A DNA stretch of 64,000 nt from Candidatus Nomurabacteria bacterium (GTDB lineage: Bacteria; Patescibacteriota; Minisyncoccia; Phycocordibacterales; UBA9973), in assembly GCA_963832025.1 (NCBI GenBank), contig CAWHSF010000003.1:79665-143664 (forward strand), read 5' to 3'. Positions 1 through 4,851 of this stretch are shown here, piece by piece. The position numbers and the translations under genes were made by a program. Below the pieces are notes generated by a model that was not told where the DNA came from, did not search any database, and saw only the letters and a program-made list of their open reading frames with translations. The stretch's first letter is position 1. The number at the start of each line of letters is the position of its first letter.

Positions 1-234
1 TCACTGACGAGTCAGAATTCAACCGAAATCGAATCCTTCAACCTCTCCCATCTATGCTACGCAGACAAAAAACATGCTCAATATCAAGTTATAGTAAAGC
101 TTCTAGGGTCTTTTCGTCTAACTGCAGGTAACCGGCATCTTCACCGGTATTGTATTTTCACCGAGCTGGTCCCCGAGACAGTTCTCCAGTCATTACACCA
201 TTCGTGCGCGTCGGAACTTACCCGACAAGGATTG

Positions 235-273
<39 letters not shown>

Positions 274-1163
274 AGGGCTTATATCAGTCACCATATAATA
301 TTGCTACCATACAACGTCGATATTTGACCTTCTGGCATTGGTCAGGTGTCACCCCCTATACATCCTCTTGCGAGTTCGCAGGGAGCTGTGTTTTTGGTAA
401 ACAGTTGCCAGAGATACTTTCGCTGCGGCCCCTCGACTCGGTGCTAAGCACCTCGCTCGGACCTTCGGCCCAAAACATTTTTCAATATTTCTAGGCTGAA
501 AGTCCTGAGAGAGATACGCATATCAATCGAAGGGCAAGCCTTATCCCGAAGTTACGGCTGCTTTTTTGCCGAGTTCCTTGGGGACCACTCACTCGTTCGT
601 CTTGGTCTACTCGACCTGATCACCTGTGTCGGTTTGCGGTACGGATTCTATATTTATAAGTTTAGAGAGTTTTCTTGGAAGCGTGCTTTGTATCATTATC
701 CTCTGCCGAAGCGAAAACTTTTTGCTTCTCTTTCATGCGCCATTTAAGGCACTCTACGGATTTTCCTATAGAGCATCAATCAAGACACAAACTCAAATCC
801 AATAATGAGCGATACATACTACACTCCGTCACTCCCGTCACTAAATACAGAAGTCAGGGAATATTAACCCTGTGTCCATCGGGTGCGGCTTTCGCCATTC
901 CCTTAGGCCCGACTAACCCTTGGCTGATAGACATTGCCAAGGAAACCTTGATCTTTCGACGTGGGGGTTCTCACCCCATTGCGGTTACTTGTGCCAACAT
1001 TCTTACTTCCACACGCTCCAGAAGCTCTCACGGTCTTCCTTCACAGCAGAGTGGAACACTCTCCTACCACTCGTAGACTTCATCAAGAAGCCAAGCAACT
1101 ATTCTTGATTAGAAATAATTGCTTAGCAATGTAAATATTTTATACTCTCTCACTTGAGAGAGC

Positions 1164-1280
1164 TGGCGGGGATGGTGGGACTCGAACCCACGATCTCCAA
1201 GTTTGAATACATGGCCTTTACTTATGATACCAGCCACTTCTTCTCCACTGGCGCTCTAACCAACTAAGCCACAACCCCGC
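1164..1280 (-). tRNA. tRNA-like unit with ~40-nt expansion in the anticodon-arm region; anticodon not assignable
   Basis: Minus strand: acceptor GGGGTTG/CATCCCC (one T-T mismatch), D arm GCTT-AGTTGGTTA-GAGC, T arm GTGGG-TTCGAGT-CCCAC, 3' GCCA. About 115 nt instead of 76. Confidence 0.35.
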
Positions 1281-1319
1281 GTTTTCTGCGAACAAAGACT
1301 TTAATTTAGATTTAAGAAT

Positions 1320-1420
1320 TGGTCGGACCTGGGCAGATTGAACTGCCACTCCCTGAAGTTTACGGGTTAGCACTTCATGGCATAGGAACGCTCTTTCCAA
1401 CTACCCAAGAGCCAGGTCCG
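1320..1420 (-). tRNA. tRNA-like unit with ~25-nt expansion in the anticodon-arm region; possible GCC anticodon in a non-canonical context
   Basis: Minus strand: 7-8 bp acceptor (C)GGACCTG/CAGGTCC(G) followed by ACCA, D arm CTCTT...AAGAG, T arm GGCAG-TTCAAT-CTGCC (6-nt loop). Internal 6-bp hairpin TGAAGT/ACTTCA. 101 nt. Confidence 0.35.
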
Positions 1421-1450
1421 TAAAACTTTAAATCTAAATTCCAATTGGAT

Positions 1451-1524
1451 TGGCGTTCCAGGGATTCGAACCCTGATATTCGGCTCCAGAGGCCGGTGTC
1501 CTGCCGTTGAACGAGGCGAACGCT
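1451..1524 (-). tRNA. tRNA, anticodon loop CUCUGGA (CUG, Gln by position), atypical D arm
   Basis: Minus strand, 74 nt: acceptor AGCGTTC/GAACGCC (A1-C72 mismatch), anticodon stem CGGC/GCCG, variable ATAT, perfect T arm CAGGG-TTCGAAT-CCCTG. Confidence 0.55.
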
Positions 1525-2332
1525 TTTGAAGTTGAAAAAGTTACTATGCTTGTTTTCACCAGCACACTAATTTCTCAACTCCTTCCAATTTTTTACTAAA
1601 ACAAAGAACAATTTTTTCTTGATGAAGTCTACGAATCCTCAAATTCGGTAATATACTTAGCCCCAATTATTTTCGGCGCAAAATCTCTAGATGAGTGAGC
1701 TGTTACGCTATCTTTAAAGGATGGCTGCTTCTAAGCCAACCTCCTCATTGTTAAAGAAATCTCACCTTCTTGTCTTACACTTAGTATATATTTAGGGACC
1801 TTAAATGAGATCCGGGCTGTTTCCCTTTTGACCAATGGAGCTTAGCCCCCACGGCCTAACTGCCGAGCTATGGTCTCTGGTATTCGGAGTTTGATAGGTT
1901 TCGCGAGATTTCTCCCTGTCGAGACCTTCCAGTGCTCTACCCCCAGAGGAAACACTCGACGCTAGCCCAAAAGCTATTTCGGAGAGAACCAGCTATTACC
2001 AGGTTCGATTAGCTTTTCACTCCTTACCACAAGTCATCGGAAGACGTTGTACGATCTACCCGTTCGGACCTCCACAGATCTTTCGACCTACTTCATCCTG
2101 CTCATGGCAAGCTCACCTGGCTTCGGGTCTTATGCATGCTACTATCAATTAAGATAGCGCGCTATTAACACTCGGTTTCCCTTTGGTTCTGTGGTTTTAG
2201 TCCACTTACCAGCAGCATGAATAAACTCGTTGGCTCATTCTTCAATAGGCACGCTGTCGCAGATCCGAAGACCTGCTTCAACTCCTTGTAGACATATGGT
2301 TTCAGGTCTATTTCACCGCCCTAATCGGGCTG

Positions 2333-2369
<37 letters not shown>

Positions 2370-3000
2370 ATCTTTAAGAATATTTAGTCTTAGCGGTTAG
2401 TTCCGGCTGGATTCCCCCGGCCATTCATGTCCTGGGGTACTCAAGAATAACAATAAAAGAGATAAGAAATTTTCGCTTACAGGACTATCACCCTCTATGG
2501 TGTTGCTTTCCAGCAACTTAAGCTAATAACTTATTTTTTAACTCCTCTTTAAATAAATAAAACATTGTCTACCTTACAACCCCCATCGTATTGCTACTGA
2601 CGGTTTGGGCTCCTTCCTTTTCGCTCGCCGCTACTAAGGAAATGCATATTTGTTTCTTTTCCTCCTGGTACTGAGATGTTTCACTTCCCAGGGTGCGCTC
2701 TTTTATCATAAAGATAAAAATTATCAAGGTTTACTTGATAGGGTTTCCCCATTCGGAAATCTCCGGATCAAAGGTTGCTAAGCACCTCCCCGAAGCTTAT
2801 CGCAGCAACGCCACGTCCTTCATCGCTTCTTAAAGTCAAGGCATCCACCGTACGCCCTTAAATTTCCTGTTAGGAAATTTGAAAACCACATCCCGACTTT
2901 ACGCCGGGAAAAAACAAAGCTAGACTCAAACTTTTTTCACGACCGCTCGTTACTAAAATATTTGCCTTAGCTTTTTTCTGTCTGGGCTAAAAGACCCATC

Positions 3001-4134: not shown

Positions 4135-4200
4135 GCAGTTTCTAGACCTTTTTTAAGGCTTGTGTGGATAACTTCTTGCGTTAGGTCTTGCCTAACGCAG
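4135..4200. repeat. 38-nt unit (gcagtttctagaccttttttaaggcttgtgtggataac, 4135-4172) plus REP hairpin tgcgttagg-tcttg-cctaacgca (4177-4199)
   Basis: The 38-mer recurs exactly at 5971-6008 and the hairpin recurs at 5951-5973. The hairpin overlaps the RAYT stop codon. Confidence 0.9.
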
Positions 4201-4851
4201 AGCTAACCAATCAAAAATCTCTTCAATAAATGAGGATTTGTTGGGAAAGTATTTCGGAAATTCTTCTATATTTAAAATCTTGCTCTGAATTCTTTTTTCT
4301 CCAACAAAATCTAGATAGCTTGAGTAGGTATATTTATTTAAATAATTGATGGCTTCTTTTTTGTTTTTAATCCCCCTTTCTTTCCAATCTCTCTGAATAA
4401 GTTTTATTGGGTTTAAATGTATATAAGAAAATAAATATTTCAGATGCTGATCTATGCTTGTATGCTGAGATTTAAATTTACCTTCAAATAATCCACCTGT
4501 TCTTTTATATTTTTTATTGTAATACATTGAATAAGCAGTGCTCAATTTTTGCATAAATTTACTTATTCCACCTTCAACTTTTTCAGTGATTAGTATATGA
4601 AAATGATTTGGCATAATACAATATGCTCCAATACCAACTAGAAGATTTTTTCTCTCTAGCTCATAAACATTAAAATTGATATCTCTATTTAAATCGTAAA
4701 AATTAAAACTTTGATTTGAGTTTGAAACATAGAGTAAGGAAATAAATCTTAAATAATCTCCCTTATCGTGAAAAATTTTCTGTTTACTATTTCCACGATT
4801 ATAGAGGTGATAATACTCACCTTGAGCAAAATTAGTTTCTCTAAAAGACAT
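4192..4851 (-). CDS. rayT: REP-associated tyrosine transposase (RAYT; IS200/IS605 Y1 HUH family)
   Basis: YHLYNRG N-terminal block, HUH motif PNHFHIL, GGLFEGKFKS block, catalytic-Tyr block YIHLNP. Flanked by oppositely oriented REP hairpins. Confidence 0.8.
   Translation of the reverse strand: MSFRETNFAQGEYYHLYNRGNSKQKIFHDKGDYLRFISLLYVSNSNQSFNFYDLNRDINFNVYELERKNLLVGIGAYCIMPNHFHILITEKVEGGISKFMQKLSTAYSMYYNKKYKRTGGLFEGKFKSQHTSIDQHLKYLFSYIHLNPIKLIQRDWKERGIKNKKEAINYLNKYTYSSYLDFVGEKRIQSKILNIEEFPKYFPNKSSFIEEIFDWLALR

Follow-up and report, generated by a model that had tools for sequence, protein, structure and literature searches.

An insert with tRNA-shaped units at helix 45 of a candidate phyla radiation 23S rRNA gene, probably an excised internal transcribed spacer

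Why should a bacterial 23S rRNA gene carry tRNA-shaped sequences within its own boundaries? The question is raised by a 64,000-nt stretch of DNA (hereafter the window) from Candidatus Nomurabacteria bacterium, an ultra-small, Paceibacteria-type bacterium of the candidate phyla radiation (CPR), which corresponds to positions 79,665–143,664 of contig CAWHSF010000003.1 (assembly GCA_963832025.1) and holds, on its minus strand, a 23S rRNA gene with a long insert at the tip of helix 45 (H45). A preliminary description of the window had seen in this insert three tRNA-like units in rRNA orientation, whose maturation would double as fragmentation of the 23S rRNA. The analysis presented here suggests, with a probability of about 0.6, that the insert is an excised internal transcribed spacer at the H45 tip, cut by RNase III to give a two-piece 23S rRNA, and that its units serve mainly as processing handles and not as decoders. 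This reading starts from what can be seen directly, namely the site, the closing helix and its covariation, the matches to the tRNA model, the enrichment of a sequence motif and the recurrence of the architecture in relatives. Feature coordinates are collected in Table 1.

Minus-strand positions 1–2871 match the Rfam model for bacterial large subunit (LSU) rRNA (RF02541, LSU_rRNA_bacteria; 1553 bits) over model positions 1–2195; the 3' end of the gene falls beyond the window start, and the 5' ~2195 model positions lie inside the window. When 850–1850 was re-searched, the LSU covariance-model alignment placed all of the extra sequence within the terminal loop of one hairpin, with ...ACCGAAUUUGAGG before the insert and GGUAGGAGAGUGUUC after it. 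By comparison with E. coli (ACCGAAGCUGCGG-CAGCGACGC-UUAU-GCGUUGUUG-GGUAGGGGAGCGUUC), we take this hairpin to be H45, the site to which the preliminary description had also assigned the insert. Between its repeat arms the insert measures 526 nt (1090–1615), and it is highly structured (minimum free energy [MFE], −213 kcal/mol; z = −10.3 compared to shuffled sequence). It contains no open reading frame (ORF) of more than 60 aa (the longest lying inside has 60 aa), no promoter-like site was found inside it, and intron covariance models gave no match in the window at gathering score or in the insert at E ≤ 10. With neither an intron-model match nor an ORF >60 aa, a group I or group II intron or a homing-endonuclease insertion was rejected, in agreement with the earlier view that no homing endonuclease is involved, and an internal promoter for the 3' half of 23S is likewise unsupported. 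The other Rfam matches of the insert at E ≤ 10 were at chance level only (YrlA, 14 bits; mascRNA, 17 bits; TLS-PK5, 18 bits), and homology to mascRNA was rejected (16.9 bits compared to a gathering score of 42.5).

Relatives were sought with two scans. The genome scan (one genome per species) looked for a T arm (GGTTCRANTCC) 60–120 nt upstream of the H45 3' flank GTAGGRGAGYGTTC, a pattern for which the author's rough estimate gave few chance matches, and returned 26 loci (cited by L numbers), 23 of which were 23S genes with an H45 insert bearing sense-oriented tRNA or tRNA-like units. Nearly all of these 23 loci are labelled Patescibacteria (Paceibacterota, Kaiserbacteria, Saccharibacteria, and Nomurabacteria), and complete chromosomes are among them (CP174360.1, OZ253947.1). 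L017 (Chloroflexota) and L023 (Thermoplasmata) were rejected as chance pattern matches outside any rRNA, and L019, cut by the locus end, was left out of the 23. Rfam tRNA matches of 32–74 bits were nested in the LSU at 16 loci, to which ARAGORN adds further ones. The metagenome scan used only the clade-specific 23S flank TACCGAATTTGAGGATNNGTNGACTTCAT and recovered seven contigs with five distinct inserts, which are the only unbiased sample; tRNA-shaped units were present in all five, with Rfam tRNA scores of 45–61 bits in four. Within the window's own clade the H45 insert is thus always accompanied by tRNA-shaped units (five distinct inserts), and the earlier suggestion to look for the same insert in related genomes was repaid by 23 genome loci and these five metagenome inserts. 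A search for contigs encoding the MscS-like protein that neighbours the gene in the window gave one 1.3-kb match, ending short of the 23S.

A conserved part of the architecture is the helix that closes the insert. A repeat search identified a perfect inverted repeat of 19 nt (1071–1089/1616–1634) with arms 526 nt apart, which one U-G and one A-U pair lengthen to a 21-bp helix (1636–1616 with 1089–1069); the preliminary description had correctly reported a perfect stem closing the 526-nt insert, though as 18 bp (1072–1089/1616–1633), short of both the repeat and the helix. The register of the helix is constant, at a length of 21–25 bp, in 27 of 27 loci. Covariation was assessed by aligning the two helix strands from 24 distinct loci (22 pairs): standard pairs occupied 95.3% of cells, 16 of the 22 pairs had changed on both sides, and the observed value was reached by none of 500 shuffles on all five measures, with only 27–49% pairing left in a control in which the 3' partner was slid by 1–3 columns. 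The invariant centre of the helix is UCA/UGA. The extension beyond H45 covaries cleanly within the window's clade (CAAGAA/UUCUUG, ACAGA/UCUGU, AUAGAA/UUCUAU, AAAGGA/UCCUUU, AGAGGA/UCCUCU), and the helix sequence is partly kept (CUUCAU...AUGAAG) across several CPR lineages. A reading of the inverted repeat as a miniature inverted-repeat transposable element or other mobile element was rejected because H45 itself makes up half of the repeat, and the extension shows both conservation and covariation across lineages.

The same observations bear on the explanation that the insert is an assembly chimera joining tRNA genes into a 23S gene. Although rRNA regions of metagenomes are prone to mis-assembly, the architecture is present in 23 independent genome assemblies, complete chromosomes included, and on seven metagenome contigs; its two junctions are mutually complementary and covary; and one relative, L011, has the flanks, unit C and both of the 3' hairpins (hp1 and hp2) in common with the window. 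Because independent assemblies show the same architecture, a chimera is very unlikely indeed, to the point of being negligible.

Table 1. Positions of the 23S rRNA gene and of the parts of its H45 insert in the window.
Feature	Positions	Strand	Basis or remark
23S rRNA gene	1..2871	minus	Rfam RF02541, 1553 bits
Closing helix 5' strand, CUUCAUCAAGAA (H45 proper plus ~12-bp extension)	1616..1636	minus	repeat and covariation
boxA-like UGUUCUUU	1603..1610	minus	GTTCTTT recurrence in H45 inserts
55-nt hairpin between boxA-like motif and unit A	1528..1582	minus	in MFE and centroid structures
Unit A, degenerate tRNA-like	1452..1524	minus	Rfam tRNA 37.1 bits at 1454-1521, non-standard acceptor pairs
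13-bp perfect stem around unit B, 5' arm	1428..1440	minus	inverted repeat I2; paired in MFE and centroid structures
Unit B, tRNA-shaped	~1320..1420	minus	inspection, cloverleaf parser, D-arm repeat
13-bp stem around unit B, 3' arm	1303..1315	minus	inverted repeat I2
Unit C, tRNA-like	1164..1278	minus	Rfam tRNA 48.8 bits, 49-nt insertion
hp1, CUCUCUC-AAGU-GAGAGAG, 7-bp tetraloop hairpin	1145..1162	minus	1-2 nt past unit C CCA
hp2, 15-pair stem	1090..1127	minus	adjoins closing-helix 3' strand
Closing helix 3' strand, UUCUUGAUGAAGUCUACGAGU	1069..1089	minus	repeat and covariation

Within the closing helix, the RNA reads from 5' to 3' as helix strand, UGUUCUUU, 55-nt hairpin, units A, B, and C, hp1, hp2, and helix strand. 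In 18 of the 23 loci the H45 insert has exactly one copy of the heptamer GTTCTTT, on the sense strand, and outside the insert these 23S genes are nearly free of it. The heptamer matches the core of the E. coli boxA GCUCUUUAACAA, boxA being an antitermination element to which NusB/S10 bind, and also the core of a functional boxA GTTCTTTAAAA described in Legionella (PMC7862264). At the other end of the insert, hp1 is kept in L011, L029, L031, and L033, with U-A/C-G exchanges, and its sequence is conserved across the clade; the place of hp2, which was flagged as a terminator-like hairpin, holds a hairpin of differing sequence in every related locus.

All three units of the window lie on the rRNA strand, and two of the three passed the gathering score (29 bits) of the Rfam tRNA model RF00005: C (1167–1278, 48.8 bits) and A (1454–1521, 37.1 bits). 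These two, nested in the 23S, are the only Rfam tRNA matches in the 64-kb window, and ARAGORN with default settings found zero tRNAs in the whole window, such that the two checks proposed beforehand diverged, the Rfam covariance model accepting A and C and default ARAGORN accepting none. The orientation given in the preliminary description is upheld, and unit B has no covariance-model match. Unit A, first described as near-canonical (1451–1524), turned out to be degenerate: its T arm is perfect and by eye it looks like tRNA-Gln, but it scores 37.1 bits, the acceptor is only 6 bp long unless an A-C mismatch is counted as a seventh pair, the D stem has 3 bp, extra bases precede the anticodon stem, which has 4 bp and carries the loop CUCUGGA, CCA is missing, and ARAGORN rejects it.

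Unit B has an acceptor stem of 8–9 bp and a central arm of ~44 nt, the loop of its T hairpin has 6 nt, it ends in ACCA, and its D arm is 87% identical to that of unit C (repeat D1); inspection and parser output give it weak support. The cloverleaf parser recovered three units in the insert, a number reached by 3 of 3000 dinucleotide shuffles, but it is loose (at least one unit in 16% of shuffles) and supports the set of three, not unit B alone. Unit C has a 7-bp acceptor with one U-U mismatch, an encoded G-CCA, a canonical D arm (GCUU-AGUUGGUUA-GAGC) and a canonical T arm (GUGGG-UUCGAGU-CCCAC), with a hairpin of ~40 nt (38–49 nt) in the place of the anticodon loop, where the model meets 49 nt compared to 11 expected. 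The central arms of units B and C, at 44 and 61 nt, both lack a canonical loop in place, and CCA is encoded in these two units and not in unit A. A decoder was expected to show a 7-nt anticodon loop on a 5-bp stem, with U33 and purine 37, a combination found in none of units A–C. Two of the units are thus supported by a covariance model and the third by inspection, none is a standard tRNA, and most likely they are not ordinary decoding tRNAs. With relaxed settings and introns allowed, ARAGORN called only unit C, as a selenocysteine (SeC) tRNA, SeC(tca), with a 38-nt intron at position 33, which is a lead and not a finding.

Next to this call, it was observed that in unit C the 7-mer AUUCAAA immediately precedes the anticodon stem's 3' strand, so that removal of the 38 nt before the 7-mer would leave a UCA loop (reading UGA). 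Similar juxtapositions of a 7-mer and an insertion occur in L003 (UUCAAGA with 42 nt) and L029 (CUGAUA with a hairpin).

Which parts of a tRNA are kept in these inserts was apparent from a survey of ~35 nested units from the window and its relatives. The usual unit has a 7-bp acceptor, a D arm with GG and a T arm, and ~80% of units encode NCCA, yet the combination of 5-bp anticodon stem, 7-nt loop, U33, and purine 37 is confined to roughly one quarter to one third of them. Canonical anticodon arms are found in L004 (Ala-UGC; 74 bits in Rfam), L008 and L018 (Trp-CCA; 67 bits for L008), L030 and L026 (Lys-CUU; 61 bits for L030), and L028 (Val-UAC; 58 bits). Elsewhere, the anticodon loop has 5, 6, or 8 nt (L006, L009, L010, L020, L024, L026), is a tetraloop on a 7-bp stem (L027) or a 3–4-nt loop (L013), the anticodon arm is missing altogether (L033), or hairpin insertions of 17–110 nt are present (L003, L011, L014, L021, L028, L029, L002, L004, and units B and C of the window). 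Judged by sequence, the units outside the canonical quarter to third cannot decode. RNase P recognizes the stacked acceptor and T stems, the elbow of D and T arms and the CCA, and it is these parts that are retained, with the decoding part varying freely. As tRNA-shaped folds that seem to lack decoding features and that are placed at the boundary of another RNA, the units would qualify as processing handles.

The canonical minority is one ground for a rival explanation, in which the nested units are genuine tRNA genes that work in translation and lie in the H45 spacer to share with the rRNA the strongest promoter that a streamlined genome has, and the arm insertions are small introns removed by some activity. 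In keeping with this are the canonical nested units of L004, L008, L030, and L028 (58–74 bits), the NCCA encoded by ~80% of units, the insertions beside intact anticodon-loop-like 7-mers in L003 (UUCAAGA), L029 (CUGAUA), and unit C (AUUCAAA), and the lack of any other tRNA in the 64-kb window (ARAGORN default). It is contradicted by the window's own units, all three of which are rejected by default ARAGORN, with B failing Rfam and A defective in acceptor and D arm, and by the non-decoding loops or missing anticodon arm of L006, L009, L010, L013, L020, L024, L027, and L033. Further, the 17–110-nt insertions are too short for group I introns and gave no intron-model matches, to our knowledge no bacterial enzyme is known that splices short tRNA introns, and unit identity changes among close relatives with an identical H45 base. 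Genuine tRNA genes are on this balance an unlikely, if reasonable, explanation of the units.

Degeneration suggests a different rival, namely that tRNA genes once landed in a tolerant, excised spacer, have no function of their own there and are decaying, kept only because the spacer is neutral ground. The degenerate anticodon arms, the variable number of units (1–3 per insert), their rapid turnover among close relatives, and the poor quality of units A and B as tRNAs would all be expected from neutral decay. The decay is, however, uneven: it falls on the anticodon arms and spares the CCA and the acceptor, D and T arms. Unit C and the second unit of L011 are alignable over their full length, including the inserted hairpin, and although most stem positions differ, every stem is kept by compensatory changes (acceptor, GGGGUUG/CAUCCCC compared to CGAGACG/CGUCUCG; T stem, GUGGG/CCCAC compared to GGAGG/CCUCC; D stem, GCUU/GAGC compared to GCGC/GCGC). 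At least one unit is present in each of the five distinct inserts of the clade, and in several lineages the pairing of the unit's 5' leader with its 3' trailer, encoded CCA included (GTTTGTTTGG ... CCAAACAAAC), is conserved. Neutral decay is for these reasons considered rather improbable.

The reading of the insert as an internal transcribed spacer is preferred because its set of parts is that of the bacterial 16S-23S spacer, and it suggests a course of processing. The spacer would be transcribed as part of the 23S precursor, with the boxA-like UGUUCUUU possibly aiding polymerase read-through of a long, hairpin-rich, untranslated stretch that includes the terminator-like hp2. RNase III substrates measure about two helical turns, and RNase III is proposed to make the primary cut in the 21-bp closing helix because that helix covaries in constant register across 24 loci. 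The 23S rRNA would be left as two pieces, of ~1.24 kb and ~1.7 kb, joined via the remaining base of H45, and the excised spacer would be broken up by RNase P at the 5' ends of the units and by trimming at their 3' ends. An encoded CCA disfavours RNase Z, for which reason this enzyme is a poor candidate at units B and C; only unit A, without CCA, fits. Spacer tRNAs separate the rRNAs in E. coli rnc mutants, and the units may similarly be a back-up that separates the 23S halves if RNase III fails. The earlier proposal that cuts by RNase P and RNase Z double as 23S fragmentation is accordingly possible in kind, but such cuts are probably secondary, with the covarying helix pointing to RNase III. 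The gene rnc is retained by CPR bacteria (PMC12641178), and in Coxiella RNase III removes an H45 intervening sequence (IVS) whose stem has 28 bp, which leaves fragments of ~1.2 and ~1.7 kb (PMC4990558).

Excision is denied by a further rival, in which the insert stays in the mature 23S rRNA as a surface expansion segment and the tRNA-shaped domains are structural or binding modules. H45 is surface-exposed and tolerant of insertions, the fold of the insert is far from random (z = −10.3), and the D and T loops, which form the elbow and are conserved, could be docking sites for partners. Set against this, the characterized H45 inserts of such size are all excised (PMC4990558), and transcripts are reported to lack the rRNA insertions of CPR bacteria (Brown et al., as cited in PMC11270868 and PMC9297842); RNase P cleavage would be hard to avoid, given that the acceptor ends are open and come with leaders and CCA, and the content of the insert varies strongly between close relatives. 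A retained segment is in consequence highly improbable.

Known systems share parts of this arrangement. The H45 IVSs of Salmonella, Leptospira, Campylobacter, and Coxiella burnetii (PMC4990558) occupy the same H45-tip site and have a long stem formed from terminal inverted repeats; that of Coxiella has 428 nt and a 28-bp stem, compared to 526 nt and 21 bp here, and its two-piece 23S (~1.2 + 1.7 kb) has a counterpart here that is predicted only. These known IVSs are non-coding or hold a small ORF (S23p), and are sporadic and seemingly horizontally acquired, whereas the inserts described here carry tRNA-shaped units and a boxA-like motif and have a helix conserved in length, and partly in sequence, across CPR lineages. 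The 16S-23S spacer (RNase III stems, boxA, tRNA-Ile/tRNA-Ala) has a corresponding set of parts, the boxA-like motif here being a putative boxA, with one or more sense tRNAs between the strands of a processing helix, and its logic, in which the rRNAs are set apart by RNase III and the tRNAs freed through RNase P and 3' trimming, is proposed here by likeness only; the differences are that the present spacer lies inside the 23S gene, that most of its units have no usable anticodon arm and that the boxA-like motif usually stands before the units, not after them. In the mitochondria of Tetrahymena pyriformis, a tRNA gene interrupts the discontinuous LSU rRNA (Heinonen et al. 1987, as cited in PMC2996981). 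This case and the punctuation of mitochondrial transcripts by tRNAs are alike in that a tRNA gene lies between LSU parts and tRNA processing can define rRNA ends, and Tetrahymena differs in being an organellar case with another split position, rearranged segments, a functional decoder tRNA and no long closing helix. The mascRNA at the 3' end of MALAT1 (RF01684) is also a non-decoding tRNA shape that serves as an RNase P/RNase Z handle on a longer transcript, but it is eukaryotic, and its CCA is added after cleavage and not encoded.

For CPR bacteria themselves, Tsurumaki et al. 2024 (PMC11270868) described the sites 23IS2 and 23IS4, which hold short non-intron insertions at the classical IVS positions that are presumed RNase III substrates, as well as uncharacterized insertions of 500–1000 bp with function unknown. 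Their survey sorts CPR insertions by introns and encoded proteins and does not describe tRNA-shaped content, a fixed-length helix or a boxA-like motif; the word tRNA is absent from it, which bears out the preliminary view that the content of the insert goes beyond the CPR rRNA insertions described so far. Neither PMC9297842 (CPR ribosome) nor PMC13011429 (group I introns in Patescibacteria tRNA genes) nor targeted searches, subscription journals lying outside the coverage, yielded a report of a bacterial 23S IVS with tRNAs or tRNA-like units, and nothing relevant came from a search of the literature for CPR ribosome structures that might show H45. Fragmented 23S rRNA, H45 IVSs, and tRNAs in rRNA operon spacers are known already; what is new, with respect to the searchable literature, is a 23S-internal spacer in which a processing helix of fixed length and a boxA-like motif come together with a cargo of tRNA-shaped units, an arrangement found again in several CPR lineages.

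A variant of the spacer reading grants the units a function of their own beyond that of cut sites: H45 would be a true internal transcribed spacer from which anticodon-less, CCA-ended, tRNA-shaped RNAs are made 1:1 with ribosomes. Such a function might be aminoacylation without decoding, for which the G3:U70 pairs in units of relatives could be relevant, the titration of tRNA-binding enzymes or, for units of the C type with their possible UCA loop and 38-nt insertion, the carriage of a new short bacterial tRNA intron. This variant is regarded as quite improbable. G3:U70, an identity element for alanyl-tRNA synthetase, was observed in L003, the second unit of L004, the first unit of L011, L013, L020, and L021, and in none of the three units of the window; L021 and L004 also have clearly tRNA-Ala-like 5' halves. 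Some of the G3:U70 units have no usable anticodon loop; such units could in principle accept alanine and yet not decode, like the tRNA-like domain of transfer-messenger RNA.

Several points weigh against the units being mainly handles of an RNase III-excised spacer. Unit A retains a normal anticodon loop (CUG), and the nested units of L004, L008, and L030, which look fully canonical, could be real tRNAs. Unit B has no match to the tRNA covariance model even at E ≤ 10. The conserved encoded CCA is not needed in a pure cleavage signal and is a hint of a further function. For UGUUCUUU, the assignment as a putative boxA is drawn from a motif of 7–8 nt. The genome scan required a canonical T arm, and the share of CPR H45 inserts with units is not derivable from it. 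Lastly, every enzymatic step is inferred, as are the two-piece state of the mature rRNA and the view that the units do not decode.

Some observations concern the surroundings of the insert. The 23S gene has a second, smaller expansion at ~430–545 (minus strand), a variable hairpin after GGCAAAAAAGCAGCCGUAACUUCGGGAUAAGGC that is ~60 nt longer than in E. coli; it forms GC-rich hairpins and covers part of the ~130 extra nt that are not due to the H45 insert. Group I introns (Rfam, 53–89 bits) were observed in or beside the 3' part of the 23S in L005 (17–215), L008 (4982–5265), L016 (5728–5977), and L021 (1064–1317), and a group I intron and an H45 tRNA-like insert do coexist in single 23S genes. 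The inserts of L029 and L031 are the same except for several 1-nt homopolymer deletions in L031, which look like sequencing errors. L021 is labelled Bacillota and L025 Rhodospirillales, and in both the H45 region has every element of the CPR architecture (CUUCAUAGAGG stem, GTTCTTT, leader/CCA-trailer pairing), so the two contigs may have been mis-binned.

Upstream of the 23S, a strong promoter-like site (TTGACA-17-TATACT, 3183–3155, minus strand) is followed downstream by a short GC hairpin with a U-run (~3079–3056, minus strand) that is intrinsic-terminator-like, and after this by the motif GGTTTGAAAATTGAAAAT (~3039–3014, minus strand). The same leader order was seen in other loci (L002–L034), where the motif reads CTCTTTGACA / ACTTTGAAAA ... 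GAATA, near the E. coli boxA GCTCTTTAACAA, and the 23S leader could be an attenuator combined with a boxA. A 219-aa ORF (4192–4851, minus strand) with the motif CIMPNHFHILI lies ~1.3 kb upstream of the 23S promoter region and, by eye, resembles IS200/REP-associated tyrosine transposases.

For the CPR, these results set out how the uncharacterized non-intron insertions in 23S rRNA genes are built and propose a way of processing them that can be tested. They also have a practical side, in that tRNA finders and rRNA annotators each mishandle such loci, and nested calls with odd anticodons (SeC-type, 2- or 4-nt) would distort the tRNA inventories of CPR genomes. The series that runs from canonical nested tRNAs to anticodon-less shapes bears on which parts of a tRNA persist when processing alone matters.

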